Assembly (NCBI GenBank): GCA_964374105.1
Contig: CAYJXI010000001.1
Span: 7,743-71,742 of the forward strand
DNA length: 64,000 bases
Direction: 5' to 3'
DNA from: an uncultured Planctomycetales bacterium
Lineage (GTDB): Bacteria; Omnitrophota; Gorgyraeia; Zapsychrales; JANLHA01
The position numbers and the translations under genes are program-made. Below the pieces are notes generated by a model, which made no database searches, was not told the origin of the DNA, and saw only the letters and a list, made by a program, of their open reading frames with translations. The first letter of the stretch is position 1, and each line of letters begins with the position of its first letter. This document shows, in pieces, positions 9,601 to 54,600 of the stretch.

Positions 9601-12600
9601 TCGCGAAACCATTCATACTTACGCGACTTTGCAGTACACATTGGTTGACCATGTCTATCAGCGGGTTATCAATGATCAAGAGGTTTACCGAAGATTGAGG
9701 GACCTCAGCCAAAAGAAAGATCGATTTGAGGACTTTAATCAAGAGATCATTAAACTCGTTCATGAGGTGGTCAAGGAACTGAAATTAGGGATCACAAAGC
9801 GTGAGATTTACAATATCGCGGAAGATCTCTTCAGCTACGAAACGTATATGAGAAGAGAAAAAGGCCGCACTGATTCTGGAGCGAACCCCGCCCCATTTGA
9901 ACCAACACAAGACGAGAAGTCTAGGTATGAACCTTTAAGATTTTCCATGAAAGTCATTGATGGGGAAAAAGGCGAGGTCTCAGTTATAGAAGACGTTGTC
10001 CGATATTGGACACAAAAACATGCGGATGTCTTAAAAGACCTTTATGAACGAGTCGCTTATCTCGCCTTGGCTCCACCGGTTATTATTACCTCTGACTTTG
10101 ATAAGACAAGAGGTTCAATTGCCGCCTATAATTCCGCCGAAGGTGTCCTCTATATTCATCTTTTTGTCTTCGATAAGCTGGTTTCCATTAAGCATCTCAA
10201 CCTTATCGGTCGGTTTGGTCAACTCAATCATGAATATAAATCCGCCTTCTTAATGTTTTTAAAAGGAGTTATTGAAGGCCACGAGCGGTTCCATATCGAG
10301 GGCATTTTAGACGAAGGGTTAACCCGGCAAAAGACCATTCAATATCTCAGTCAATGGGAACATCGAGAGGTTCTTTTGGCCACTCGTCAAATTTTAATGG
10401 CTAAGAATATCTTTGGTGTTGAGACACAGGAAGATTTCTTTGTTACTATTCATGAGCTGGATGATTTCAGCCTTACCCGTCTGACGATTTTCGATAGTAC
10501 TCTAAGCGACTCCATCCACTGGGATTTCAGTCTGGAACTCCTGGCACAGAGAGAAGGCATCCCGGTTACCCATCTTAAGCAGAGGCTTAATGGCAAGACC
10601 ATAATGCTGGTTGGTATTAATAGTAACAGCATGATTGTTAACTTGGCGCGTCTATTGCCAGCGAGCTCAATCATTGTTGTCAACCCCGACAGCTCAATTA
10701 TTTCTGGTGAGGTCGCAAACGTCCGGTATATTCATGATGGCGTTGAAAACATCGCCCGGTACTCAGTTAACGGGGTTGATCTCATCTTCTCCTCCGGGCT
10801 CTTTAATGAGGATTATCCCGGGATCAAGCCGCAGCAATATCCGGCCTTTGCAAAGGCTATGAAGGAAAGTCTTGCTGCTAAGGGACTCATGCTCATTGGC
10901 ACTGGTCTTACGGGTAATGAAGTATTTGAGAAAGTTTTACGGACAGAAGATTTATTCGTAGAAAAATTATCTGAGATAGGAAGCTGGATATATCTGGTTA
11001 CAAAGCAAGATACAAGTGACAGTCACTCCCGCCAAGGCGGGATGACTGTCCTGCCTGCCGGCAGGCAGGTCACTTCTGGAACTCGAGTGGCATTTAAATT
11101 TATTAAAGGGCTGTTGCAGGCTTCGCTTGCTGTCATGCATGTTTTGGGGCAAGCGGTTCAACCAATGCGTCACCTACCGTGGCTGGTGAGGCGCATTGTC
11201 AAGAGTTATTCTGTAACAGCCCTTCCATCTATATTTAAGTTCTTAGCCAAGATGGCGGGTGTATTAGCCATACAAATAGTTGGCATGGGCGGCGGGAATA
11301 TCGGGGTGGTTTTGGTTATTACCACGCTGACATTCATTGTGCTTTGGGGAGGCTATAAAATTTCCAAGAATGTTAAACAATTCGTTGATCAGGAACGCCA
11401 ATACTTAACCAGACTCAAAGAATTGGCTGAAAGACTGAAAGAAATTGGTCAACGGATTCCTGAACTGGAAGAAAAAGCCAAGCGATTGTCCCCGGAAGCC
11501 CGAGATGCGGTGAAACAAGGACAGGAGAAAGTCTTAGCGGCCGTTGCCGGCGATCATTTTGAAGAGGCGTATGAGCTTCTTGAGCATTTATGGCAGACAA
11601 TCGAAGGTTATATGAACAATCTCATCGGCATTCCGGATGAATTGAAATATTTATTAAAGGAGCAGGAAGCGATTAACCAAAAAGGCAAGGCTATTGAGAA
11701 ACAACTTGTTTCCTTACGTAGCAGGGTTTCACGGTTCGTTGAATTCCTCTCTAGTCGCCTCCATAAACAACTGCGCCAGGAAGAGTCTGACCTTATTGTC
11801 AGCTGTTGTTATGCAACACTAACTTTTGATTTCGCGGTCCATGAAGCGGAATATCAAGCCGAAAGTACTTTGCGTGATATGACCTATGTTTTGAATTATC
11901 TTATCAGCGAATACACCCATGTCTTGAGAGAGAAAATGGAAGAAAGGAATGAGGTCGCTGTACTTTCCCCTGAGCAGATTGCACTCTATCACGAGCAGTA
12001 TATCGAGAAAAATATAAGACCAAAGATTGCCAGAGAAATCACGAGAGAAAAAATCAGTCCACAGAAGATTGACCAGCTTTTGGCCTATTTGAATGAATCG
12101 GCCGATCATATGGTCGAGGTTATGCCTCGAGGGGCGCCGGAAGAGGTACTTAAGAAAGCCAAAGAATTAAAGGCCAAGAGGAGCGCCATAGACAATTACA
12201 CATTAGAGGAAATTGCCCGAAGATTCGATTTCTGTAAGGCCTGCGCCCCCAATCAGGTTTATGGAAGGATCATCGCGGCGTCAGAACGGGTGGGTCAGTT
12301 TGAGAGAATTGTTCGCTTCAACCAGAGACTCTATGACTTAAGCGAAAAGATTGAATATATCGGCACAAAGGTCGGTGTTGATGTAAACCTTAAGCGTGGT
12401 TTTTCCAATCTTGAGCATACCTTCGGTTTGACGTCACCCCTGGAAGGCCTGGCCCGAGAAATTCTTTCCATAGATGATATTAAGCGCTGGAGGATTGTCA
12501 GAGACAGCGAACTGGCCAAGAAACGTTTTGGCGGGGAATTTTTAAGTCAAGTCAACGAGGCTTTGTTTAAGTTAATTGTCCATGACATCTTTGCCGAATC

Positions 12601-15600: not shown

Positions 15601-18600
15601 ACCGGTCTGGTTTGAATTACTTACTCTCTTGGCGCAGAGATTGGGCAAGCAGGTATTGATCCCTGTTAAGGTGGCAGGCATGATCTTTGGTATAACAGAA
15701 AGTTTACAGGCTCAGCATATTCGGCCAATTGAATTGCCTGCTGAATTAAGCGTACTGCGTGTAGAGATGTTTAGATTTCCATCCAGGCTCTGGTATGACG
15801 ATCTTGGATTTACAAAGATTGATCTAGCTCAATCGTTTGAGCTGGAAGTATCCGGACAATTCTATATCTTCCCAGCGAAAAGGGATGATCAGCGCGAAGA
15901 TAATCCTGTGACTCCTGAGCCCACCGCCACAAGGTCGGGTGAACCGCTTTCAACAGAACAAGAAGACAAACTTCGGGAATACCTTAAACTCAAGGTAGGG
16001 CAGTTCAGCAGTTATGCGGACATTAAGGTAGACCAGATTGAGGCAACCATCAAGGCCTTGCGTGAGGCGGGCTTGAAAGCCTTGGCGAAGCGGCTGGAAG
16101 AACTCAAAGAAGCTCGTAAAATCCGCGCTGGGCCCAATGATGTTTTTGAGGAATTAAAGAATTTCGGCATTGATCTCTTGGCCTTCAACTTTAAAGACTG
16201 GATCATCATCCATCCGGAATTAGTAGAAACCCCCCATCGCATTCGCTTGCATCAAATCCTCACCCATGAGACAGCAGCAGTCCTTGGCTTCTCACATAAG
16301 ATTAACCTCATGTTTGAGAAGGTCATCACCAAAGAATTCACACAACAAGAACCAGGGTTTATTGATTTAGGTGAAAGAGAAAAGGTGTCTATCCCCGTTT
16401 CTGTAGTTGACAAAGTCGAGACTATCACTTTTAGAACTCAACCAGTTGGTTATCAAATCAAGAACAGACAGGTCATTCGGTTAGAGAATAGATTAAACCC
16501 GGATTTTGCATTGGCAAAATCCGCCCGAAGGGCCGCTACGGCATCCCGCCATGGCGGGACGCCTAGCGGGGTTAACCCCGCCAAAGGCGGCCGAAGGCAA
16601 AATTTGCAAAGCACTTTTCTGTATAGAAACAATCAACGAGGTCAAAGTCCTATTGCAAATTTTGGGTTAAAAGGCGATATGGCTAATGCTGTTCTCGGCA
16701 GAGGCAAGGGAGTCACTTTGTGGGAGGGCGGGGCTATCCAATGCAATTATTGTGTAATTTGGGATAGTTCAAGACGACAAGGGGCGATCATCCACACGAA
16801 TTATCTCCAATCCAAAGACATGATGGTGTCTTTCTTGAGAAATATTTTAGAGATATTAGGAATTCCATTAGAGGATAAGAGCTATTTAAGAGATCACGTT
16901 TTGACAATGATAGCTAATGCTCCTCACCAATCGGTCTTTGTCAGTGAGATGTCAAAGAGAATCGAAACCGTGCTGGCTGACAGCTTGGATGAATTAGGAT
17001 TGCCTCGGCTTAGGACGGATACCAGCGTTGCCTGGTATGTTACTCATATTCAATTTTTCGTAGATAAAGGAATAATACGATCAAGCTATAAGATTAACGA
17101 AAGGCAATTTTATCAAGTGGACTTAAAAGAATTGTCTAGATTGCGAAAAATGGGAAAAATGGGGACTGTCCCCATTTTTGAAGCCTCCGCGCCAATCTTC
17201 CGTGCCCTGCCTGCCGGCATAACAGGACCGCTTGAAGCCTTCGCTCCAATCTCCCGTGGCTCCCTGTACCACGTAGGGTACAGGGCCATGAACCCAACGT
17301 GGTTCATGGGGGTCATGAGAATTGTTTCCCAAACGACAGCGGCCCTTTTAAAATCTTCCGTGGCAGGCCCCGTAGAGAAACTTTACGGGGCAGGGAGGTC
17401 GCCGCAGATACCACTTGCACAAATCAAGGGACCGGTTATGCCTCACCATCCGTGGCAGGTGACGAGCATTCACCAGGGCCCATCTGCGGCGGCCTCTTCT
17501 TATCACAAGTCACAAGACATCCTTCGACTTCGCTTGGGACAAGCAAGTCAGCCCGCCCTGGTCTTCGCAACTGGCGGGCCAGGGAGGTCAGCCCGCCCCG
17601 GTCTTCGCAACTGGCGGGCCGGGGAGGTCAGCCCGCCCCGGTCTTCGCAACTGGCGGGCCGGGGAAGTCAGAAGACCCAAGATTCAGGACGCACAACGCA
17701 GAACACAGAACCCAAGACTCTGAACTCATTTGCACCTATCGTGATTGTGGGTTTAGGGATTGCAACGGTTGTCATCATCATGACGATCAAGGCTAAGAAT
17801 CGACTCATGAAGATAACCAAAGACTTTTTAAGTATTGCGACATTGATGGCCGTTGTTGGAAGTCTTTGGACGATTTGGATAAATCGTGAAAAAGAAGTTG
17901 AAGTGATTCCAAATACTCTTGATTCCCTCCCCCTTGTGGGGAGGGTTAGGGAGGGGGTGAGGTTACAGTCTTCACCCTCCCCTAGCCCCTCCCATCAATG
18001 GAGGGGAAATACAGGATTGGGAGAACAGGACGATTCAGCAAGAATTGTTTCGAGTGTCGGCCCAGAATTCTACAGAAGTGTCAGTGCCATACTCAACAAT
18101 TGGTTAGAGGAGAGAATGAAATATATTGTGATTGAATTAGCACCCAGAATGAGTCAAGAACAAACACGGAACCTCTTTCATCTCCTGAGGGCCATGCAGG
18201 AGGTCACAGAAACAAGTGGCTTGAATACACCTCTGCTGGGTGTAGATCGTATGGCCGTTGGCTTCCACGAAAGTGATCGTTTCAAAGCGAATCGTCAGTA
18301 TCGAGGGCCTGCCCGCGGGTGGCTGCAGGTGGAGAAGAATACCATTAAGCATGTGGTGGAAAATTTAATGCCTCGATATCCAACTCTTATTCCCATCGTT
18401 GTGAAAGAAGCCGCAGATTATCATAAGAGGGCAATGACCTTTAAAGATATTCAAAGATTAACGCCAGATGAACTCGGGGTGTTAGTCAGACAAAGGATTA
18501 AATTTGATGTGGCGGTTCATCTTGCTTACTTTATAGAGGAAATGAGTTTAGGTGTCAGGAGGTTAGCCACTCAACATGGTCTTCTCTTGGATCGAGAAAA

Positions 18601-21600
18601 TATTCCTGATTTCGAGGAAGGGTTGATCGAACGAGAAATCCGACAGTTAGTTAATGATAGCAACAATCCGCAAATCATAGACAAGATCTTGGAGGAAATG
18701 ACTAACCTGTGGCTTAACCAATGGAATCGAAAGCCGGGCGTCTTACAAAATCGGATTAATGAACAATCTCGATTGTCTCAAGAGATCCCATCTCTCAAAG
18801 AGAAGTTGGCAGATACGTTGAAAGACAAAAAAGATTTATTGATGCTTCGACCAGGCTCAGCATCAATCCTGAGCGAAGTCGAAGGATTGAGACTCTTTAA
18901 GACTCAAGCAACAAGCCCGAAAGAATTCTTATCATTCGCTGAACAGTTAATTCAACTGACTAAGGCTTCGGATGAACGTATTTCCCAATTACCCAGTGCG
19001 ATTAAGAAAGCCATCCGAACGATCATTAAAAAGGAAGAACGATTGAGCGAATTACCTGCCGAAATGGAAGAACTGAGAACCGAGATTAAGGCCTCCCAAG
19101 AGAAGTTTAGAAAAGAGATGAATGAACTTAAGCCGATCTTTAGATACATCTACATCGCGATGAGATTGCAGGTGATTTACAGCAAAGCTGTCCTTGCCTT
19201 GGAGAAGGATTCTCATCAATCCAATGCTACAAGCCAGGAGAAAAAGTCAGATAGCATCATTAGAGAAAAAATAAAATCTCAACCTAAGCCAGTTACAAAG
19301 AAAACCAATCGAAAAGGAAGATCATCCCTGAAGGCCATAAGTGAGGTTTATGGTCTAGTGCTTGTCGTAGGGCTTGTGATTTTAGGTGTGATAGAGCTCA
19401 TGCGACAAATCCAAGAGTCGCAATGGACCTTGGGTGAGCGGTTAAGACAAGTTCATCAAACAATAAAGAGACTCTTGCCTTTCCGTTGGATGGAAGTTGC
19501 AGGTTCAGGTGGCCTTTCTTTCCCGATGTTTATGGAAGGTATTTTAAACAGAGGAATAGGTGATAATCCATTTTTGATTCATGGCCGAGATGAACGATTA
19601 ATGCTGCCGGTATTTGAACAAATGGCGGATGCGCTTGAAGAACAATTGCTGGTAGCAAGTACAGATTTTCAATATTTGATTCACATTGTACAGAATGGGA
19701 AGAATAAAGAGAACCGTTTAAGGGCCTTAAAGACCTTGATTAAGATCCTGCTTGATCCCAACAAAGAACCTGCTTTGTTAAAGGCTGAGGGTCATCTCAA
19801 TGATAATGACAAACAAGCCTTAATCTCCACAAGGATTCATCAGGCCCTCTTTACTGTTATCAATACTGAAACTGATAAGGAAATTCAAAGATTGGCTTTG
19901 GAGGCGTGGGTTATTAATTCAATTGAATTGCTTGTGGAAAATCGTCATCAGGGGGATTCAGGGATTGTTCTCAATAGAATGTTACGCGAGGTCCTTGCCT
20001 TGAAGGTCGCCCGTTCTCAACAAGCCAATCTTGTCATGGAAGTCCTTGATGCCAAGATAAAACAATCCCCAGATAAGGACTCTCAAGAAGTTATTGAAAT
20101 GATGGATTGGCTAGAGAAGATCATCGAAAGAATCGATGATCTAGAAGAAGATGATGATATTGAATATCGAGGGTCATCGGGACTTAAGGCTTTTGGAACT
20201 GTCAGTATGATCATCCTTTTGGTGGGTTTAGGGACAATTTGGATTTACAAGAAATTTGCCCAAAACAAACACCCGGTGTTTGGCGGTGAACAAAACATAA
20301 GAGGTGAAGAAGTTTCTCGGAGAAAGGTATTCAAATGGATAGGATTAACCGCGGTAGCCATTGTTCTCAACTGCACAGGATGTTCACTAATCTGGCCACC
20401 CAAAGCACAGGATTTTGTACTTGTTAATTATGCGGTTGAGCCTCTCAACTGGGCTAAGATTACGGGGGATGCCCGAGTTGTCTTTTTGGGAGAGACCGAG
20501 CACTTTTCTTCAACCGATAAATATCTTGTTGCCAGATCTCTCAAAGAATTGAAGACATTAGGAATCACCCATTTGGCTCTGGAGAATTTGGAAGTTCATA
20601 CTCAGGATATTGTTGATGCGTATTTAAGAAAGGAAATTCCGTTATCCGAAATGGAGGAAAGGATCAGATCAAACCGGCTCCAAAGACCTAATGGGGAAAT
20701 TGTTTTACCGGCGATTTATCTGCCAGGATACAGAGAGATCTTCCAAAATGCCCAAGCATTAGGGATTAAAGTCATTGCCTTAGATAAACCTAAATATGAA
20801 GAACACACTATCCGGGAGCGTAATCTTCAGTGGGTAGAAATTATTTTGTCTATCCTTAAGAATGACAATAAGGCCAGGCTTTTAGTCATTAACGGCAATG
20901 CCCATTCGAATTATCAATATAGATTCCTAAGAAGAACAAACGCCTTTTATGCCATCCCCCAAGAGTTAACGCCAGTTGTCCCCGAGGCCATTCAAAACGA
21001 AGGCTTCCCAGTGGTCGTAACACAAATGGCAGGTATTGACGGCTCGGACCTCCCAAGCTATAGACATCTTATTATTGAGGCGGTAAAGAGATATGCTCAA
21101 GATGATAAGCGAGTAAAACTTGACCAGCCGCAGATGATGATTCCCCGCGAAGGGTTTGTTGATGAAATTTGCGATTGTTACATTTACGCCCCAGCCGTAA
21201 CGACTCTTAAAGCCTTTGACCCGGTGATCGGTTTGATTATGTTCCTTGGTATTGCCGGGTTGAGTTTATTGAAGAGGTCAAAGGTGAGGTCAAAGGTGAC
21301 TGTCACCTTTGGTGACAGTCACCTTTGGGCAAGGCGCTCGTTCCTAAGGACAGTCTTCGGGCTAGGGACAGCTTTAGGATTAATGCCATTTGCTCCAAAG
21401 AAAGCTCACGCAGAATTAACCGTTGATCAAAACCTGCCACCTGATCTGCGCCAGTTGTTTGAAATGGTAATCCCGATCGCACAAATCATGTTGACTAGGG
21501 AAATAAAAACAGAGGACCAGGAACTTAAAGAGCTCTCGAGAATTTCCCATCGATTCCTCTTAGAACCCGGCGTCAAGGTGACCTTTACCGTAGGTGATCT

Positions 21601-24600
21601 TAACCAAATCATCGCTAGTCAATCGAAAAACGAAGACGATGAGTATAGAAGAGAACTCATGAACCGACCCGATGCTGCCGCGCGGGCCATGGTGACCAGC
21701 TTAGGGGCCAATCGTTATGTTGTGACCTACGACTTTAGGATGATCAAGGCAGGGATGGCAGCCTTGATTACCGGGCTTGCTCATGAACTTATTGCTCACA
21801 CTTATATCATGGAGAATATGAAAGAAAAATTATCACCTCTGGAAGAGGAGAGACTCGCTTTTGCTTTGGAGATCAAATATATTGAGGTGCTGTTAGCCGA
21901 CCGCGATCTGGTTGAACAGATTACCTTGGGCGGCAGGAATTTAACGATCTACAACGATTTTAGAAATCTATTGGAATTTGAAAAAGCCACCCTGGCTTGG
22001 ATTGAAAAGGAAATAAAACAACAGAAGGCCGCGCAATTAAAGAAGACAATCGCCATCATTGGTGCAACAGCACTGACAGCGGGAGCAGGCGTCTTAGGGA
22101 CTTTACAGGTCATCAAGTTAAGAAGATTCAAGCGCGTTCGTCTCGTCTTTGATGCAATCAAGGGTCAAGGGGCATTTGCTCAATTGGATAAGCTTTTACG
22201 AAAACAATTAGTCGCCCAGTTTACAAAAGGTAATCGTTTCGAACGTGCGACCTTAAAGCAGGCCGGGCTGTCCACAACCCAGAGAGAAGAATTTAAAAAG
22301 AATTTATCCCGGATGATGAGTGAAGAGGAGGAAGACGAAGGGAATGAAGGCGGAGTGATGCTGGGAAGCGGGAGAGGCTTAAGTGCAGTGCAGGAGAAGA
22401 TGGTGAATCAGGCGCTGGTAGAGAGCGAGGTGAAGGAGGTCAGTGAGGAGGAGTACCGAACATTGGATGCGGGAGGCGAACTAAAGTCCGAAGGGGTGGT
22501 GATCCATAAGGTGAGCGGGTTGAATGCGAAGATCGAAGAGATCGGGCAAAGAGAACATACGATGTTTGGGGATGAGGTGGTGACGTATGCGAAGGTGAAG
22601 GAAGATGGGAGCAAGCATTTGTACTTGGATGAGCGGGAGATGTATGTGGTGATGAATCTGAGTGAGAGGTTAAGGAGGCAGTGGGGAAGTCATGAGTTAT
22701 TGCACTTAAAGCAGCCGATGCTGAGTGAAGAGCTGGTGCAGTTGCAGGTGCCAGTGGATGAGGTGTTAGAGGCGAGGGCGAAGTATCTGGGGTATGAGAC
22801 AGGAGAGGTGAAGGCCTTGGCTATAGTGAGGAAGGAAGGGGTGAAGGAGAAGGAAGTGAGTAGTGCGATGGCGGTGGCGAAGGAATATGGGGTAGTGCCA
22901 TCAAAGGTATTGGCGTTATCGAAGAAGCATGGACTGCCGGTGGTATTGACGGGCGAGGCGATGGGGCTTGCACAGAGGTATAAGACGACGATGAGTCAAG
23001 TAGCGTTGTGGGGCAAGAAGTATGTGGGGATTTTGAATAAGGCGGGGTTGAGCCGGGAAGAGATCGATGAGATCTGGCGGACGTTAGGGTATGAGCAGAA
23101 GGAAGAGGTGTTAGATGCGATCGAGAAGATATTAGAGATTCATCAGGAGATCGAAGAGAGTGAAGTAAAGTTTTCGATGAGTGTGATAGAGCTGGTGCGA
23201 GCGTATCGGGTGGTAGGGGATATGGATGAGCTGCGGGAGCTGGTGCGGATTGCGATCGAGCATCCGATGAGCGGGCGGGGATATGGGCAGGTAAAGCAGC
23301 GGTTCCCCGAGTATGCGAGATTTAAGAAGCTCTTGGAGATATGGGAGGAGTATGTGGAAGCGGGTCATCCGATCAGTGCCGAGATCATAGAACAGATGTT
23401 TGATAAGAAAGGGCGATCGCGGTGGGTGAGTGAGGAGGAGGAAGGTGAGGAAGAGGAATGGCATGAGGGCGGGGTGATGCTGGGAAGCGGGAGAGGCTTA
23501 AGTGCAGTGCAGGAGAAGATGGTGATGCAGGCGCTGGTAGAGAGCGAGGTGAAAGAGGTCAGTGAAGAGGAGTATGCTGCGTTGGATGTGGGAGGAGAGT
23601 TGAAGTCCGAAGGAGTGGTGATCCATAAGGTGAGCGGGTTGAATGCGAAGATCGAAGAGGTTGCCCAAAGGGAATGGACATCGTTTGGAGATCGGTTGAT
23701 CACGTATGCAAGAGTAGAAAAGGATGGCAGTAAGCACCTGTACCTGGATGAACGAGAACTGAACGTGATTATGTATTTACCATCCCGCATCCGTCAGCAA
23801 TGGGGCAAACATGAAATGGGTCATCTTAATCAACCATCTTTACCTGAAGAAAGGATACAGAAGGACGCTCCCATTGAGGAAGTCCTTAATTCACTAATCC
23901 ATCCAACTGAACCTATTGTCAAAGTATATGATGAACTCGGCGGGTTGAAGATATCAAGGAAAGATCAACTCTTTAAAGATAAAGAAGGAAAGAAGAGGCC
24001 GTATACCCGCAAGGGCCAGGTGTTACACACCTTCCATCTTGCTGTCCAAGAAGATTTGAAAGCAGTTATTGATCAGAAGATTCTACCTGCTCTCACTACA
24101 AAGAAAGCAAAAGCGAAGATAGAAGAAAATCTTCAGCTGATATTTAGACAGACCGGGGAATTTGGGAATATTAAAACGATCAGTATTTCCAACGGGATGT
24201 TGACCCCACTTTTCTTTGAAGAAGACCGCACTTACGTAGATGTGAGCCTGTTATTGATGCCTTCCGCTCCCTTTAAGGAATTATTGAGATTGGGTTCTGC
24301 CCATGCCTTTGAGAAGAGCCGAATATATCGGGTTCAGACGAGTAAAGGAAGCTTTATTGATGAGTATAAGGCCGATAGTGTGAGTGTGTTTGAAGTGGCT
24401 TTAAGTCTTCTAGCGGCGGATGAAAAAGTGCTTAAGCAACTGGAAGAGGCATTCAAGAATTTAAGCAAAGCTAATTGGGAACTTTCAGTTTATCAAGAGC
24501 TTATCGATGCCCTGCGGTATTTAAGAAGCCGCTTTGTCGTACAAAAGTATTTGTTAAAGGCACATAACATTTATGACATTTACGATTGGGAAATAGATCC

Positions 24601-45600: not shown

Positions 45601-48600
45601 AGCAGAAAAGGTTTCAGCCGGTCTCAATGCTGAGGATATTGTCAATGACACCACAACCAGCGCCGAAGTTGCGGCTCTGGCTTTTAGCAAACACCCGTGG
45701 ATTGTCGATAATGTTACCGCCATTGTCTGGCGTGCCAGCAGAAAACAAAGAAAAGAGCATGTCCTCAATACAAGGCCACAACTCCTGTTAGAGGCACCGC
45801 CACAGCGAAAACTCTTGCCACGACCGGCACCGAGAGGGCTAAACGAAAAACGCATTTTTGAAGAATTAGAAAAATTAAAGGTGACTGTCACCCAAGGCGA
45901 TAATCACCTTTTTGTGGAACGATTGCAAAATGCAGAAGATAATGCCGATCGCATCAAGATATTGTTAGAAGCATATCCACTGGAAGGCGTCAACATCGAG
46001 GTTGCCTCACCCAGAGGATTTTTAAGTTTTAGGGGAGTCGGTCGAACCGAAAGAAAAGGTCCACATCATTATCAGATCACCTTGATAGGGGTATCAGGAG
46101 ATGTCGAGATTTATCTTCTGTTCCATGAATTTTTGCATGTGTACTTAGAAGAAAAAGGCTTGACCTTTAATCCGGTCGTTGAAGATGAATCCTTAAGTCA
46201 GTATCTCTTTAAGTTAAAGAACTTGATTAACGATTATATTATTGAGAAAGAAAACAAGAGACGATTTGGCAATCGTTTTGTTCATATCACCCGAGATTTA
46301 CGAGATCGAGATGTCAGAGGTAATCTTATGGGTATGGGGTTGGGCACAAATCTGGAAATCTTTATGCTTGCGTTAACTGCCAAAGTGACAACTTCCCTGT
46401 ATCCCGAACTAGCCGACTCCTTCTCTCAACAATTTATTGGCAAGGCGGTTGAGTACAAACCTCTAGATAACGTCCTCAAAGAGCTTCAAGGTGTCTCTAT
46501 CGCAAGTAGCCCAGAGGAATACAGAAGAACAATCACAAGACTCCAGGAGTTAATGACGAAAAGTTCTCTTACCTTTGAAAATGATCGGCCAGTTGTTTCT
46601 CTTAAGGAAACTAAGAAATTCATCGAAGAGATTGAAGCAGATATCCGCAGATTAATGAACTTAATTAGCGGTCAAGAGAGAGGCACGGCAAGTGAGGAGA
46701 AATTGAACACTTATTCCGAATTGCCCGTAACAGCAGAAGATCATAAACGGGCGGTTGATCAGTATTCTTTAGGTCAACAAAAAGAAATTGTTCATACCCA
46801 ATTGGCTTTGACTGAGGAAGGTCTTCAACTCGAAGTTGTTTCTGGTTCATTAATAAGTGATGGGGAGAAAACACTCAAACAGGATCTTAACAAACTTCTT
46901 GAGGAGATCCGTGGGCCGCCCGAGGTACTGAAGGACATCATTGATGTGAAACTTGTGATCACCACCCAACCCACCCAGTTAAGAGACGGCAATAGATACA
47001 CTATCTACATTTCCTCTGTCAATATCATTCGAAGGACAGTTTATCTCCATCCACAGTACTTCTCAATCAGTGATCAGAGATTAAGGCTGGATATTCTTTA
47101 TCATGAATTGGTCAGTCATCTCTTTAAACGCATCAGAGACGAACAGATGGCGATGGCTGATACCAAGGCCTTCCGGCAAAGACTGATTCAGAAAATCCAA
47201 GAAGATCTGGCCGTGTATCCTAGGATCTTCTTACATGAAATCACTAGAAACCTCAAACAAAAATTGGATCAGCAAATCTTTTCTATGGCAAGAACCCTCA
47301 ACCAAGGATTAGCGGAATATCCATTTATCAAGATCATTGACAGTATGAATGAATTCTTATCACAGATTGCGGAGAGATTAACTCATCCGGATGAAAAGAT
47401 GAGGATTTATCCTAAGGTGGTTGTCAGGACTCATGAAACCGATGCCCGTCATACCGAAGTTCCCATCACTCACCGCCAGGCGAGAGTGGCGGTCTTCCCA
47501 GTGGCGGGCAATCCCTTGCACTGGGCGCATATTTTGATCGGACTTAAAGTCATAGCCCAATTTGGCATCGACAGAGTTATTTATCGTATTCAGGGTTTAG
47601 ATGATCGCAAACCTGATCTTGAAATCAATGAGAAACTCCGCCATCACATTGATGAACAAATGATGAAAGTCTTTGCCCCGCTTTTTGACTATTCCCCATC
47701 CGGAAAAGGTTCCACCTTTGACGGCGAGACTGATTTTGACCGATACTATGGCTTTAATGCGGGGGTGAAACTGGATCTGTATTATGTGGTTGGTGCTGAT
47801 CATTATCACCGTGAGGTCAACGGTAAGGTAGATACCATAGGCAAGTTGGAAAATTTTGCTGTCAAGGCCGGTCGGGAAATCCAGGATACCTTTGTCATCT
47901 TTATTAAGCGAGGCGAGCTAAAGCACAAGGTTGAGACAGAGCTTAACGTCAATTTTGTGGATGAGATCACCTTTGAGGCCTCCTCGTCCATGGCGAGATC
48001 CGGCAATGTCGCTATCATTCCGTACCTGATTTATCGATATGCACAGAAACATCACCTCTGGTGGTTTACTCAATTTTCTACGCATACCATGACTGAGAAA
48101 ATTAAAAGATCGCTCAGATATGAGATTCATAAAATTGCAAAGGTGCTTAACCGCGGTTTAGAAGATCATCCATTTAATAAAATGTTACCAACAATTGATA
48201 AACTGTCTGCCAAGATCGCCACCCGATTGCACAATGACAATATCAATCCTCAGGTTGTGATCCGAACCCACGAAAAGGATGAACGAGAAATCAATTTATT
48301 CGGCAAACAAAGAATAAGGATTGCTGTCTTCCCGATCTCAGGGAATCCAATCAGTTTAGGCGATCTCATTGTCGCCTTAGGAGCCATGGCTGATTGGGGG
48401 GCAGATAAAGTCATCTTTGTTCCGGCCGGGCAAGAAAAGGACAAGGATTTTGTGGTCGCAGAAGAATACCGACATAGAATCGCAGAAGAGCTTTTGAAGA
48501 GATTGGCTCCCTTCTTTGAATATTCCCCGATTGCCAAGGGAACAACGGATGATGGTGAGACACTTTTCTTAAAATTCTTTAAGTTGAATCAAGGACAGAC

Positions 48601-51600
48601 CATTGAGTTTATGTATATCGCTGGAGCAGAGCATTACAATCGTGAAAAAGATGGAGAATTAGACACTATTGGTAAACTCGAGAAATTCCTTCCCGAGGCT
48701 GGGGTCGATTTTAAATTTGTCAAGGCCATCTTCCATCAGATGGAAGAATACCCAGTCACCCAAAAAATAGAAAAGATTCTGAGGGTCATGTTTATGCCAG
48801 CCTTTGAATTTCTGGCCTCCGCTCGACAGGCTAGAAAAGGAGATTTAAGCGCCGTTCCATTTACAGTTTATCGATTTGCTAAAGAAAATCAATTGAATTG
48901 GTTTGGATTAGAAAAACCGCAAGCTATCTCCACCTCACCTAAGGTTTCTGACATGGCGGGCAGTACTCAGCCGACAGCTACCCCACCGGTTATACCACCG
49001 GCAACCGAGGCCCCCCGCAGCGATAACAGCATCCGCAATGGACAAGGCGGCGGAGAAGATCAGCAAAAAGATCCCAGACGTAGTGTGCCGGGAGAATCGG
49101 TATTATCAGCCGAGGAGGTCAAAGGCGAAGTGGAAGATCGATTAAAAGAAGTCGAGGGAGATATCACCCGCTTCAAAGATATCCGCTCACTCAATCCCGG
49201 TGCTGTTCAATTAGCCTTGAATTCATTACCGATGGTGGAATCGGGGAAACCCGGCCAGATGATGGCCGGTCTCTTGGAGGTGTTCATTAAAGCCGGACGT
49301 GTCCGGGCCGGGCCTTTCAAAGAATTTTTAGCAACAGCCTATAAACACACCGATCAACAAGCCCGCCTGCCCCGTACAAGTTCCTCCGGGACTCTACGGG
49401 GCCTGCCGGACGGGCAGGAATATATCCTTCTTTCCACCCTTTATCCGGAGTACTTCAACAAACTGCAAATCGCTGCTTCCCTCATCCACGAAATTGGCGC
49501 TGTGTCCACATTCAATAAGTCAGAAGATGAAAATATCAAACGCCATGAGGCTTTCTTAAAACTTTCTGATAACCTCATGCGATATTCAGGTCCAATTGTT
49601 TTGGATCAACGCTTGTTTGAAATGTTAAGCCGCATGCAGTCCACCGGGAAACCGGTCATTACCGATCTTTCCTTAGAGGCCTTCTTACCCGAATTGAAAG
49701 GCGAAGCGCAAATGAGTCTTGCCAGTGGTGGGTTAGGCTTCCTCACCGGTGAGACCTGGGGTGCCTACCATCATTTAGAACAATTCCATGGAATAGGGGT
49801 GATGCCGCTTTATGCCCATTACTTCAATTCCTCAGGACAGTGGGTGAAGATTGATTGGCTAAATACCGAAGGGATTAAACCGGTCATGGTTAGAGATGCA
49901 CAAGGTAACGAAAAGATCCTTAGTTTCGATGTGGTTTATAATCGTCATCATTCCTATAAAGTGGAAATCTTCTGGATCAATCGAAATGGGATTCCGGTCT
50001 TCTTGATTTACGCTCCCCCAATTTTTAATCGTCTGTATCCGGGGGATGATCATCAGATCACCCAATTTACTTTCTTTGCCAGAACCTATGTCGAATTGAT
50101 GAAGAGACTGGGAATCCATCCGGATGTCGTGAGATTAAATGAACCCCAGCTTGTATTCGTGGCTTCCGCTATCAAGAACGATATTGATTGGTTCAATGAA
50201 TATCGAAAACAATCCCAGAGGGAAATCTACAGTAACTTTGAAGGTTCGCTCATTGTTACTACCATTCATACTCCCGAAAACGTGGCTATTCCCAGATGGT
50301 CGGCGGATTGGCTGAAAAATCATATTGGAGAGGATCTGGTGAGAGACTGGGACGGCGCTCGCGAGGCAATTGTCTATGAAGACTGGATAAAGAAAGTCCA
50401 TTCGGCGGTAGGGGTGGCGCGAGTCTCGGAGATCATCAATGCCGTCTCAGAGGAACATGCAGAAGTCACCAGGCTCGTTGTCCTGCCGCAATATAGAGAT
50501 AAGATTGTAGGGATTCAAAACGGCTCTGATCCAAGGTTGTGGTACTCACCGCAATTACAAGCAAAGGTTGATTCAGTGATCTCGCAGGAAGACATTACCG
50601 GAAAAGAATTATTTGACATTGGTCAGGCTCAGAAGGTTGCCCTCAATGAATATCTAGAAAAGAAATTTGGACCAGAGTTTAAATTCAGTGATTTACAAAG
50701 ACCATTGATTGGCCTGGTCAGACGGCTCGTGGCTTATAAGGAACAGAATATTTTGATTCCACTTATTCATTGGATTGTGGGTGATCGAAATCAATCCTAT
50801 GAAACTCCGTGGGGATTGCAGAATGGTCTGGAGGCTAATTTACTCATTGGCGGACATGCCCGGGATAGTTTTGGTGGTGAGTGGGTCAAAATATTTAAGG
50901 AATTGATGTATGACCAAAGAGTGAAAGGTAAATTCATCTTTGTCAATGATACCGGTATTGAATTGATGCGCTATGCCACCTCGGCCTCGGATATCTGGGT
51001 GAGTATCCCAAGAGCGACCCGTGAGGCCTCAGGCACAAGTGATCAGCGCGCCGCCCTCAATGGCCATTACAATATCGCCACCGCCACCGGCGGGCCGTTG
51101 GCTTATATTCAACACGGAGTAACAGGTTGGTTCATCGATGCCTTTAAAGACTGGAATTTTGAGGAAGTTGTTTATCGCTTTGACCGATTCGATCCGCAGA
51201 TTATTCAAATCTTCCAGCAGCAGGCGGCATTGCAGTTACATCTGTATTTAAAGGAGGCCGTGCAAAGATATTATGCCTATGTTGAAAACAGTGATCAAGC
51301 CTGGCTTGAGGGGATGCGGCAGGCCTTCCTCATGGCTCACCAAGAAGTGGCGATCAAGGTCATGATCGAAAAGTATGGATTGCTTTTTGAAAGCGCCTTA
51401 GATCAAACCGGGGCTCAGGGGTATCTTAAAAAGTACGATATATGGAAGAGGTTAAAGTCACAAGTCACAAGTCAGAAGTCATCCCTCGCTATCGCTCCCC
51501 GGCCCGCCAATCACAAGAGCCGGGGCGGGCAGGACAGGCAAGTCACAGGTCACATGTCAGATGACATCCCTCGACAAGGCTCGGGACAGGCAAGCCACCC

Positions 51601-54600
51601 CGGCCCGACAGAGCCGCAAGGCGGGGCGGGCATGCCACATGACACAAAGGAGGGTGACAGTCACCTTCCTTCGGCCATTGGCAAGGGAAGGGCGGTGGAA
51701 GAAGCCAAGAGTATCGCTCTTGAACCGCTTAAAGACCAATACCTTGAGGCCATTAATCGGGCAAGGAATGTCTTAGAAAGATTGGCGAAAGATCAAACGA
51801 TTCCTTTGGATGACCGGGAGTTTCTCATTCGCCTCCTTGGTTATCTTGAGGCCATGGGGCTGTTGTTAAATCAGGGAATCGTCACTATTGGGACATTTAA
51901 GGCGATCATTCGAGCGGTTGATGATTATCTGTTAGGATTCGGCGAACACCAGCCCATGCGGGTGACATTATCCATTGAGGTATTGGATGCAATCTTGAAG
52001 GATTCTTCTTTAAATCCAGAGCACATGGATCTTTTGATTGCCGAATATCTCTTCCATGAGGTTTATGCCTCCTTTGCACCGGAAGTGGATACCAAAGGTC
52101 AGCGTGATGAAGAGGAACACAAACGACGTTACGAAGGGATTCAGCGCCGGCTCTTTGGCAAAGAAAATATATTGGCTAAGTATTTGCGGGGTGTCCTTGA
52201 AAGTCATCTTTCACAGCCTGAAGTGGTTTCAAAAGCCCTCGATTCCCTCCCCCTTGTGGGGAGGGTTAGGGAGGGGGTGGAATCACAGTCTTCACCCTCC
52301 CCTAGCCCCTCCCATCAAGGGAGGGGAAGTGAAGAAGAAGCTGTAGAGAAAGTTACTAAGCCATTGACACGTGAAGGAGAGGATGAGCTGGCGGGATCAA
52401 ATATCCTGGATGTCATGAAGGAAGAAATCGAAAAGTTGCAAAATCATGTGATAACCCAGCGTCTTAAGAAAATGGAACTCCCGAAAGAGATTTTAGGATT
52501 TATTGGGGAAATAGATCAGTTATTGATGAAACTTAAGACCTCCACACGTAAAAATAAATTCAGTTTGATTCTCCAAATTTTGATTGCCATGAGCCGATTG
52601 CTTAAGGATATATCGCTAGGTGGAATGGACTTGGAAAAGAGACTTGTTGGATCAGAGTTTACTAATGAGCTAATGGGGCAATTTGAACGCCTTGGGATCA
52701 AAGGAAATCTGCAAATCATAGGCCTTGGTGATTTTTCTAGTGCCGGTAAAATCAACGAGGCCGTGGGATATATAAAGGCTTATGTCACCCTTCTTCAGAT
52801 AACCACCCGAGTTATCTCCCTTAAGGCCATGCGCTCTGGGCTAGAATTTGTCCTCAAAGGACCAGAAACCGATCAATTCTTTTTTACTCCCCTCTTTGGC
52901 CCCTCGAAACAAATTCGGGAAAAAGTGACCTGGAAACAAACAGGGGAGATCAGGCCATTATCGGATGTGGATTTGTTTGTTGAACAGTTGCGGTCATTGT
53001 TAAAGCGTCTCAATGAATTAGAAGCCATCCATGATAAAGCGGATCGGGAAACGATTGGGGAGATCTACCGTGATCTTCTCAAAGAAGGGGAAGATTTGCT
53101 TTCTCAAGAGAAGGGATACAAGGCTCCCACAGCCGATGGCAAGGCAGGATTGACCGGTGAGTTTAGGACTCAATTAGAAATATTCTTCCTTAAGATGACA
53201 ACAACGATCAATTGGGATATCCAGGTATTTTCAGATAGGTATTCGCAAACGTTTAAGTCAAGTATGTTTAAGTCGCTGGGCTTTGTTCAGCATTATTTTG
53301 GGAACATCATAAGACTCATGGGGATTGAGGAAGTAAGGGTATCAAAACTATTTAGTAATTTTGAGTTTAGAGCGGAATTAGCTAAAGAACCAGGAATGAT
53401 CACTCTGGATAAGGAAGAATCATTCGTGTTTGAGATGCAAACCTTGTCTTCCTTTGTTGAGGACAAATTAAGAAGACGTCCCGAGGCCCGTAAATATTTT
53501 GATTTTATGAATCAATTGAGTAAGAAATTCAAGGGTCAACTATCAAAAGTTCTATTTGAAGTAACGGTTTCGGCGATATCGATCAATGTCCTCTCAGAAG
53601 TACTCAAACTCTATTATTCCACAACAAAGATTAAAGACCAACAAAGCCAGCTGAAGCAATCATTAACCAAGTTCTTTGATAATTCGAGGATTCTAAGTGA
53701 GAAGACCGATGCGAAAGAAAAGGATCAATTGAGGGAGACCTTAGTCGATTTGATAAATCTTTTTGATCGAGTTGGGAGTGATGATGAGATAAGAGAGATC
53801 TTCATCAAGATGGCCCAATTCCGAGGCATTATGGATGCCTTAAGTTTTGATGAAACAAAAGCTCCAAAGATAGATCTGCCGGTTAATCAGCACTTGACTG
53901 ATCCTAACATAGATCAAATGGAGTATGTGATCCTTCAGCCCGGGATTGAGGCCTCCTTATACCTTCCCACAATAAAGGCCTTAAAGAAACGCAAGTTTAC
54001 GATTGTAGAAAATGATTTGTTCGCAAGGGAGTACTTAAAGAAGCTCATCGAGGTCATGGGTCTTGAATCAAGGGTAAAGATCAAAGAGATGGATTTAACT
54101 CGCCTTAAGGATGAATTTAAAGAAGAGAGCATCTCTACCTTAAGAATCAAAGAGGACGCGATTGCCTGGGATGAACTCCCAGAGGAGTGGTTTAAGACAT
54201 TGCCTTCCCTTATTGCCAAAGGCGGCGATATTCAGATTGCCCTCAAACCGCAAGGGTCAGAATCCAAAGTGATTCAATTGAAGGAAGTCCTGGAATCAGA
54301 AAAGGATAGACCTGAGGTTAAATTGATCCAGATGCTTTATCAGCACTTGGTTATTGAAAACAAATGGTCATTAGAATTTGGTCGCATGGGTAAGGGTAAA
54401 TTAGCCACGATGAAGACTGGCTTTGAGCGGAATGATATATATTTCGAGACGTTATTTATCTTTACCAAACCATACCCCGTTAAAAAGGAAGAGGCGAAAG
54501 CAGCAGAAGAAGTTGAATCTCAAGAACCCGAAGAAAGCGAGGAGCCAACTCTGCCGCAAGAAGAGACCATAAAACCAGACACAATCGTCTTGCCGGCAGA

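Follow-up and report, generated by a model that had tools for sequence, protein, structure and literature searches.

GC-rich palindromic islands in a giant Omnitrophota-type gene are probably in-frame copies of selfish DNA elements

A 64,000-nt stretch of contig CAYJXI010000001.1 (assembly GCA_964374105.1, positions 7,743 to 71,742), from an uncultured bacterium of the Omnitrophota lineage and here called the window, is spanned by a single giant gene. On the plus strand, frame 2 runs from nucleotide 2 to 64000 without a stop codon (21,333 codons) and is open at both ends of the window; all other frames are open for at most about 630 nt. Within this open reading frame (ORF) lie islands of GC-rich palindromes and hairpins. 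These islands are DNA-level elements, not protein motifs, and the elements appear to occupy variable loops and module junctions of the giant gene, with one such loop modelled and three islands at module edges. They are likely to be copies and clusters of selfish palindromes similar to repetitive extragenic palindromes (REPs), to the REP doublets termed REPINs and to Rickettsia palindromic elements (RPEs), carried in frame and filtered by selection. An earlier note on this DNA had offered two explanations, footprints of the recombination that assembled the gene and self-propagating elements tolerated in linkers. The latter fits best: the islands are built of DNA-level repeats, are stop-free in the gene's frame and include dispersed families, and paralogues of the host modules lack them.

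The excess of palindromes over chance was measured against two kinds of shuffle, synonymous-codon shuffles that keep the protein and its codon usage and codon-block shuffles that keep local codon composition. A hairpin was counted when it had a perfect stem of 7 bp or more, 6 or more G/C in that stem and a loop no longer than 12 nt. The ORF holds 16 GC-rich perfect hairpins compared with 1.6-2.0 in the shuffles (maximum of any shuffle, 6), and 8 stems of at least 10 bp compared with about 1. The short words that the islands had been said to share are likewise overrepresented, with 52 copies of CCTGCC/GGCAGG against 25 expected and 23 of GCCCGCC/GGCGGGC against 4.3, and GTGACWGTCAC occurs 7 times against an expectation of 0. 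Moreover, the hairpins are clustered: an inverted-repeat scan of the window placed 18 of 23 GC-rich hairpins within 1,476 nt, or 2.3% of the sequence. Stems of the window units measure 7-17 bp, and the predicted RNA folds of most islands are much stronger than those of shuffles (z -3 to -7.6). No Rfam family matches the elements, the only hits being sub-threshold hairpin look-alikes.

That the repeats belong to the DNA is evident from how they are read. The GTGACWGTCAC word of the GGTGACWGTCACC family (7 copies) is translated in two frames, as KVTVT or GDSH, and its third frame, which gives TGA, is never used. Because 40 is not divisible by 3, each of the three copies in a 40-nt array at 17547-17671 falls in a frame of its own, and tandem composite copies at 51446-51640 are also read in frames different from each other. 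The codon-position periodicity index is 0.386 in the islands versus 0.92 in the rest of the ORF, with a minimum of 0.58 among 300 size-matched random samples. Over the 1,476 nt of islands there are 0 stops in the gene's frame versus 14 and 17 in the other two; for the largest island (17140-17700) the corresponding numbers are 0, 7 and 2. An 88-nt element present twice has one of six frames open in its first copy and two of six in its second, and both copies use the same open frame. Taken together, the flat periodicity and the stop-free gene frame make the islands resemble non-coding sequence that has passed a filter for readability. Repeats at the protein level were rejected by the frame tests.

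P, G, S, H and Q are overrepresented in the peptides that the islands encode. The 30 residues on either side have average composition (disorder-promoting fraction 0.553, null 0.552), and the linker-like character therefore belongs to the elements and not to pre-existing linkers.

Outside the window, at least four families, GGTGACWGTCACC, CCTGCCTGCCGGCAGGCAGG, GTAGGGGCACGGCATGCCGTGCCCCTAC and the 88-nt doublet, recur with exact identity in unrelated genomes and in phage contigs. The counts from scans of public collections are lower bounds, and the loci used for context were chosen because they contain the palindromes. Intergenic positions account for most of these outside copies, ordinary enzymes carry some of them in frame, and a tRNA-Met has one in its variable loop. 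When one genome per species was scanned, the GGTGACWGTCACC doublet turned up at no fewer than 120 loci. Among the matches listed, the hosts are mostly Chloroflexota and Actinomycetota, the others being Acidobacteriota, Fibrobacteria, Spirochaetota, a Clostridium and three Omnitrophota loci. At two of the latter, from metagenome-assembled genomes (L019 and L045), the doublet is intergenic, just 3ʹ of genes and between an A run and a T run, and that of L045 scores as terminator-like on both strands; at the third (L083), the doublet is covered only by a short stop-free frame. The doublets of L019 and L045 adjoin small hairpins, such as GCCCGCCA...TGGCGGGC and GTCATTCCCGC GAAA GCGGGAAT, that resemble the window hairpins at 17547 and 11017; the resemblance to the L019 intergenic hairpin extends to the window hairpin at 11017-11049. 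In the Chloroflexota loci, GGTGACWGTCACC doublets are located just upstream of start codons or in spurious frames. Additionally, within the Anaerolineae of this phylum (among loci L001-L120) the doublet has a fixed form, AGGTGACAGTCACCT-NNN-AGGTGACTGTCACCT, with several copies per genome, including four GGTGACWGTCACC-family doublets within 1.6 kb (L001, 4173-5771). There it is often immediately upstream of a start codon (L118, L079), which may point to a function in regulation or protein binding in these bacteria.

The CCTGCCTGCCGGCAGGCAGG palindrome occurs exactly at 44 or more sites in at least 35 IMG/VR loci with unrelated flanks, several contigs carrying 2-6 copies, and with one mismatch twice in the intergenic DNA of L051. 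In one viral contig (L271, IMGVR_UViG_3300033148_008720, 2239-2330) an exact copy fills the variable loop of an otherwise ordinary tRNA-Met, which ARAGORN calls as a 92-nt tRNA. The same junction between tRNA and CCTGCCTGCCGGCAGGCAGG is found in L248, where the T arm is truncated, and in L278 the palindrome adjoins D-arm-like sequence. For a 32-bp palindrome of the window, the 24-nt core is present in at least five IMG/VR loci, and four of the five copies among the matches listed extend to GTAGGGGCACGGCATGCCGTGCCCCTAC, a stem-loop tagged GTAG...CTAC.

The 22-mer core of the 88-nt element, GGGGAGGGTTAGGGAGGGGGTG, occurs in at least 120 metagenome contigs of 38-73% GC. By Pfam, members of this 22-mer family lie in frame in a class-III aminotransferase, where the Aminotran_3 profile is split at 86/87 (L158), in an M24 peptidase, where Peptidase_M24 is split after profile position 123 (L210), in the linker between two TrpE/PabB domains (L162) and in an amidohydrolase (L238). 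The in-frame inserts of the form CCCCTCCCCC-loop-GGGGGAGGGTTAGGGAGGGGGTG add about 10-40 residues, for example NTPSLTLPPRGGGQGWGGD. A further in-frame unit of this form, in an HrpA-like protein (L177), was assigned by eye. In a subset of the 22-mer matches (L137, L138, L144, L145, L167, L169, L171, L176, L188, L200, L207 and others) there is a longer conserved context, …TTTACCCCCCACCCTCCCCTCCCCCTCAAGGGGGGAGGGTTAGGGAGGGGGTGATGTCACTTTATTTATTACGTTTGTATTAGT, which looks like the end of a larger repeated element. Searched against a protein library, the peptide of the 88-nt doublet gave one weak match of 44 aa. BLAST against all fetched loci returned no relatives of the islands at 16500, 17140-17540, 30290 and 49350, and viral-contig scans returned 0 matches for the 40-nt unit, 0 for the 17155 hairpin and 6 for the 17262 hairpin pattern, not clearly above a rough chance estimate of 1-2. 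No description of the palindrome sequences was found in the searchable literature, where only primer coincidences turned up.

The families in the window include GGTGACWGTCACC, CCTGCCTGCCGGCAGGCAGG and GTAGGGGCACGGC..., as well as the 88-nt doublet, a composite unit of about 100 nt and the 40-nt unit; for four families the in-window copy numbers are 7, 2 (plus 1 decayed), 2 and 3. Most of the hairpin clusters listed earlier were recovered, and elements beyond that list were added, namely the GGTGACWGTCACC family (7197-7235, 21291-21328, 45877-45911 and 51654-51664), a palindrome at 33084-33115 and the two 88-nt copies. The first member of the GGTGACWGTCACC family, at 7197-7235, is a head-to-tail doublet of AAAGGTGACAGTCACC that is read as AKGDSHQKVTVTF and has a predicted fold of -26.4 kcal/mol (z -7.6). 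An inverted doublet of the family at 21291-21328, with a 17-bp stem and a TTT loop, is read as KVTVTFGDSHL (-33.6 kcal/mol, z -6.9) and directly follows a hydrophobic segment at 21215-21271. Just before this palindrome, at 21274-21299, is a 12-nt tandem repeat, GAGGTCAAAGGT in 2.2 copies, in which the palindrome's left flank seems to be partly duplicated. The doublet at 45877-45911 is partly decayed and read as KVTVTQGDNHL (z -4.5).

The composite element at 11015-11073 (-39.9 kcal/mol, z -6.4) contains a 33-nt hairpin at 11017-11049, GACAGTCACTCCCGCC AA GGCGGGATGACTGTC, and adjoining it the perfect 20-bp palindrome that had been reported, CCTGCCTGCCGGCAGGCAGG, at 11050-11069. Half-sites of the GGTGACWGTCACC family are present at 11016, and to judge from the sequence GTGAC...GTCAC half-sites, a doublet of the form GTGACAGTCAC...TGACTGT|TCAC, appear to enclose a nested 16-nt hairpin together with the 20-bp palindrome. 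The three-hairpin cluster at 16500-16600 (-59.1 kcal/mol, z -4.6) is made up of a hairpin with a 10-bp stem at 16500-16523 and two perfect palindromes, at 16544-16559 (TCCCGCCATGGCGGGA) and 16566-16581 (GCGGGGTTAACCCCGC), the last two matching those already noted at 16545-16590.

The largest island (17140-17700, 187 codons) corresponds to the cluster given as 17160-17700 and contains at least five separate hairpins, among them those at 17155-17179, 17262-17285, 17286-17309 and 17367-17391. Also within it are CCTGCCTGCCGGCA in decayed form (17206-17219), a composite unit (17496-17600) and an array of 3.1 copies of the 40-nt unit (17547-17671). The fold of this array is not above that of shuffles (z -0.9), and its first copy carries a paired change, CCCTGG/CCAGGG versus CCCCGG/CCGGGG in the other copies. 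Two hydrophobic segments (17732-17881) come after the island, followed by the first copy of the 88-nt REPIN-like doublet (17921-18008, plus strand), read as DSLPLVGRVREGVRLQSSPSPSPSHQWRG. The second copy (52241-52328, plus strand) is read in the same frame and has a fold of -61.2 kcal/mol (z -4.5). Each copy consists of two inverted hairpin units with a short spacer that together form one long imperfect hairpin, and Cmscan aligned the element end to end as a single hairpin; the copies are 94% identical to each other in unrelated flanks. The GGGGAGGGTTAGGGAGGGGGTG sequence at 17943-17964 and 52263-52284 has four G tracts 1-3 nt apart, a canonical G-quadruplex motif on the sense strand in both.

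Among the remaining elements, the perfect 32-bp palindrome at 33084-33115, AGGTAGGGGCACGGCATGCCGTGCCCCTACCT, is tagged GTAG...CTAC and read as EVGARHAVPLP (z -6.6). The island at 49361-49422 (z -3.1), recorded earlier as hairpins at 49360-49430, has two hairpins, GCCCCGTAC...CTACGGGGC and CCTGCCGGACGGGCAGG, located between 49367 and 49422. At 51446-51667 are two tandem composite units of about 95-110 nt each, related to that at 17496-17600, in which AAGTCAC heptamers are followed by CATCCCTCG and then by a GCCCGCC...GGCGGGC arm. The three composite units (17496-17600 and the tandem pair at 51446-51640) have a mean column identity of 72%, and a single GGTGACAGTCACC lies after the tandem pair, at 51654-51664. 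Finally, the stretch at 30290-30410 is GC-rich with degenerate CCTGCC/GGCAGG words.

Terminators on the sense strand were rejected as candidates: between 5 and 25 kb of the window, terminator-like sites are at background level (21 versus 19.5), and the GGTGAC copies scanned there were not called. Island-linked calls are on the minus strand (16523-16500, 17179-17155 and 11034-17), the sole plus-strand call being weak (17298-17317).

The placement of the islands within the giant protein is clearest where a host module has paralogues or stand-alone homologues. A domain of about 180 residues with an HExxH motif (EGHERFH) is present in three copies (590-1171, 6866-7546 and 9746-10567; 38-52% identity). 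The element at 7197-7235 lies in its variable helix-loop-helix connection just before the motif, where the loops of the two paralogues, 11 and 20 aa long, are unrelated and lack the element. In an AlphaFold model built from an alignment of 3 sequences, the predicted local distance difference test score (pLDDT) is 80-91 in the core and dips to 68 at 7197-7235. The HExxH domain has no Pfam match, and the modelled fold has no significant PDB match. A second module occurs four times (15722-16384, 30398-30991, 34325-34798 and 39299-39925), begins with TATRSGEP(L/M)(S/T)EEQ and contains HETGAxxGxxH (HExxxxxGxxH). One of its copies has a weak Peptidase_M10 match, and a library of 1.8 billion proteins yielded remote homologues only. 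The island at 30290-30410 lies in the variable segment immediately before copy B, and both the paralogues and the remote homologues align only downstream of it. The 16500-16600 island is about 40 aa past copy A, in a region that cannot be aligned among paralogues; the other copies have unrelated sequence at the island positions and lack the elements.

The third case is a GT5/phosphorylase-like module (49595-51466, plus strand), whose stand-alone homologues are 818-1909 aa long and 39-54% identical to it. Three of these (818-881 aa) end 2-14 residues from the start of the island at 51440-51680, their alignments finishing at residue 879/881 (P0001), 845/859 (P0002) and 814/818 (P0003). The gene neighbourhoods of the stand-alone homologues are unrelated and show no synteny with the flanking modules. 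The hairpins at 49361-49422 are about 170 nt upstream of this module, and several islands are within about 200 nt of hydrophobic segments. The view that islands mark domain boundaries throughout the ORF is an over-generalisation: among the four islands whose placement is documented, it holds for 51440 and 30290, and for 16500 within about 40 aa of the module, and it fails at 7197, which is inside a folded domain.

If the islands are selfish palindromes, short palindromic DNA that normally lies between genes would enter a giant ORF that has no intergenic space of its own. Copying into new sites would be carried out by a mobilising system, for which a RAYT/Y1-like, hairpin-recognising single-strand transposase is a candidate by analogy with REPs only. 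Selection would then keep insertions that preserve the frame, are stop-free and lack a sense-strand terminator tail, at positions where the fold tolerates 10-190 extra residues. Existing hairpins may attract or tolerate more insertions and so give rise to clusters, and the nested arrangement at 11015-11073 suggests cluster growth by further insertion. The G+C-rich palindromes would be passively translated as P/G/S/H/Q-enriched peptides, which would explain why the islands look like linkers. The 94% identity of the 88-nt copies, set against 25-70% protein identity among host paralogues, suggests that the elements are young relative to the architecture. Furthermore, the element-free paralogues of the HExxH domain and the TATRSGEP module serve as "empty sites" within the window, and the unrelated flanks of the 88-nt copies are counted alongside them.

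Several observations weigh against this explanation. The 7197 element replaces a loop of similar length and adds none, so a simple insertion would need an accompanying deletion. The searched libraries yielded no close orthologue of the giant gene and no orthologous empty site. There is no target-site duplication at either 88-nt copy or around the 20-bp palindrome, and no conserved end is definable; the GTAG tag, typical of RAYT-mobilised REPs, is found in one family only. Copy numbers in the same organism are those of the 64-kb window alone, and several hairpins of the largest island, along with the 40-nt unit, have no copies in the scanned collections. Lastly, 30290-30410 and 51446-51640, which the earlier note had counted as hairpin clusters, are GC-rich and share the words, as it said, yet they fold no better than shuffles (z -1.0 for the former, -0.5 and -1.3 for the latter).

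An alternative close to the recombination footprints suggested earlier is that the islands are scars of gene fusion: former intergenic spacers, with hairpins of terminator or REP type, that became coding by stop-codon loss when genes were joined. The start of island 51440-51680 where three stand-alone homologues end, the position of 30290-30410 immediately before a module boundary, the mosaic of unrelated enzyme domains in the gene and the presence of island-like hairpin clusters in intergenic DNA of Omnitrophota metagenome-assembled genomes would all be expected of such scars. A joining origin is thus possible for junction islands such as 51440-51680, but it fails for the 7197 element, which is inside a confidently folded domain, and for the near-identity of the 88-nt copies in a protein whose paralogues have diverged far more. 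Moreover, perfect palindromes of 20-32 bp would not persist as ancient neutral relics, the stand-alone homologues have no synteny with the neighbouring modules, and the same families insert into single-domain enzymes and a tRNA elsewhere. As a general account, fusion is improbable. It is still more doubtful that the islands are nucleic-acid structures selected for the needs of a very long mRNA, such as exonuclease protection, ribosome pausing before membrane segments or between modules, or processing sites. The very strong predicted folds of most islands and the paired change in the 40-nt array are consistent with selection on structure, as are the proximity of several islands to hydrophobic segments and the lack of sense-strand terminator-like tails on islands whose palindrome carries such tails in intergenic DNA. 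However, the islands mix unrelated families without regular spacing, three have no significant structure, none matches an Rfam family, and the 11.6 kb from 52.4 to 64 kb have no island at all; unrelated genomes also carry identical sequences, in either orientation and in contexts that are non-coding, coding or within a tRNA.

Two further explanations carry far less weight. Low-complexity linkers selected for flexibility, with the palindromy incidental, would account for the P, G, S, H and Q enrichment and for the position of some islands at module junctions. This is very improbable and is largely refuted by the frame and shuffle tests, since the same DNA words give different peptides in different frames, the 40-nt period is not divisible by 3, codon periodicity is missing from the islands and hairpins are in roughly eightfold excess over shuffles that keep the protein. 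Least credible of all is an assembly or sequencing artefact arising from adapters or chimeric joins. Chimeric reads can indeed produce palindromes, but the islands are free of stops in the gene's own frame and in no other, and the same palindromes are present in hundreds of independent assemblies from different projects. The islands are not known to match any sequencing adapter.

The discovery of genes with tens of thousands of codons is recent, and giant multi-enzyme genes and proteins have been described from Omnitrophota (West-Roberts et al. 2023; Nielsen and Lui 2026), with no mention of palindromes or hairpins in either paper. The window ORF is probably a gene of this multi-enzyme, "Archaeovorin"-type class, which its length, its mix of domains and its roughly 20 hydrophobic segments fit; the best homologues of one module include proteins labelled Omnitrophota/Omnitrophica, but also Elusimicrobia. 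Pfam identifies phosphoribulokinase/uridine kinase (PRK), cytidylyltransferase, ChaN, two DnaJ, GNAT, Ribul_P_3_epim and NAD-dependent epimerase domains in addition to the GT5/GT1/phosphorylase-like module. These domains are scattered, and the bulk of the protein is without a recognisable one; a search of four further ORF segments at E up to 1 gave nothing credible, and Pfam revealed no transposase domain in the 64-kb ORF. There are 22 hydrophobic 19-residue windows along the protein, two overlapping pairs reducing these to about 20 segments, and self-BLAST of 400-aa pieces revealed many internal duplications. Very large protein libraries, searched twice by word index and once exhaustively, returned no close relatives. 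The best match is a stand-alone protein with 54% identity to one module only, a word-indexed search with aa 5301-6300 gave no match, and aa 10059-11258, searched exhaustively with HMMER, had 12 remote matches, none of which reaches across the 33084 site.

The duplications of the host include a 3.4-kb block with a DnaJ domain that is present in two copies (23393-26818 and 26783-30235; 34-56% amino-acid identity) and a module of about 700 aa that recurs at least five times over the 11.6 kb from 52400 to 64000, which has no palindromic island. A GC skew of 0.44 over 2 kb (22001-24000) coincides with a duplicated E/V/K/G-rich domain, 22355-22774 and 23474-23893, whose copies are 74% identical in amino acids and, over 213 nt, 90% identical in nucleotides. 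The loci that carry P0003 (L124-L126, 1-8918; 64% GC, labelled Elusimicrobia) also encode proteins of 8,393 aa (cut by the contig end) and 3,564 aa beside a PorV gene.

If the islands are indeed selfish palindromes, they would be a cheap source of new linker and loop peptides in giant genes, datable markers of recent change in gene parts and possible substrates for the duplications frequent in this ORF. For annotators they would be a warning that the "P/G-rich linkers" of this gene arise as by-products of DNA elements instead of being designed spacers. A bolder proposal, which we put forward tentatively and consider rather unlikely, is that the palindromes are an undescribed, horizontally spreading class of ultra-short mobile DNA with units of 13-32 bp and no recognisable ends or transposase. 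Giant genes would act as sinks for them, and nested insertions would build disordered segments, perhaps recombination sites, that aid growth and module shuffling. What bears on it is the exact recurrence of very short palindromes, new to this study, across Omnitrophota, Chloroflexota, Actinomycetota and other phyla, phage contigs, ordinary enzymes and a tRNA, a recurrence of identical 13-32-bp sequences that merits separate study.

Several known systems are comparable with the window elements. Intrinsic bidirectional terminators are resembled by the GGTGACWGTCACC doublets of L019 and L045, which lie 3ʹ of genes between A and T runs, whereas the copies in the giant gene have no sense-strand T tail. 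MITEs (miniature transposable elements with inverted repeats) can contribute coding sequence, as do the QMITEs of Coxiella burnetii (PMC5896051), and like them the window elements are non-autonomous and palindromic and add peptide segments to ORFs. Unlike MITEs, which have defined terminal inverted repeats, a target-site duplication and an origin from insertion sequences, the 88-nt element has inverted termini with no duplication seen. REPINs are REP doublets that form hairpins, are extragenic and mostly vertically inherited, and are linked to a RAYT present in single copy (Bertels and Rainey 2011, PMC3116915). The 88-nt element, with two inverted hairpin units that fold as one long hairpin and at least two near-identical copies, is of the same form, whereas both of its copies are coding and its core is found in contigs of 38-73% GC.

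With RPEs the likeness is one of behaviour, and a sequence match is not expected. RPE-1 is about 100-150 bp long, A+T-rich and restricted to Rickettsia. RPEs, reportedly the subject of work by Ogata et al. in 2000 and by Claverie and Ogata in 2003, are said to be inserted in frame and translated at sites compatible with the protein fold. The window elements are likewise palindromic and in frame and keep the reading frame open (0 stops versus 14 and 17), but they are shorter and G+C-rich, and their families occur in several phyla.

The closest comparison is with REPs found inside genes. Di Nocera et al. 2013 (PMC3733652) described GTAG/CGTC-tagged REPs, normally extragenic, that lie in frame inside known genes of Opitutus terrae, Rickettsia and Thauera. 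Most of these are present as dimers or groups that encode 20-30 aa, clusters encode 43-82 aa, and the elements were read as neutral insertions at tolerant positions, disruptive ones having been purged (PMC3733652). RPEs are mentioned in that paper as well. The window elements are also short G+C-rich stem-loops in frame inside a gene, in keeping with the imperfect palindromes of about 20-40 bp typical of REPs, and the same neutral-insertion interpretation would apply. The phylum of Opitutus terrae belongs to the PVC group, in which Omnitrophota are usually placed. The two cases differ in their tags, as GTAG is found in the window only at 33084-33115 (GTAGGGGC...GCCCCTAC), as well as in four of the five viral-contig copies of that palindrome, and the GGTGACWGTCACC, CCTGCC and 88-nt families have neither tag. 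They differ also in form, several window units being perfect zero-loop palindromes of 13-32 bp. In-frame selfish palindromes are thus already known from a few other bacteria; new here is the extreme host, a single gene of more than 64 kb in which several unrelated families are packed in islands of up to 187 codons.

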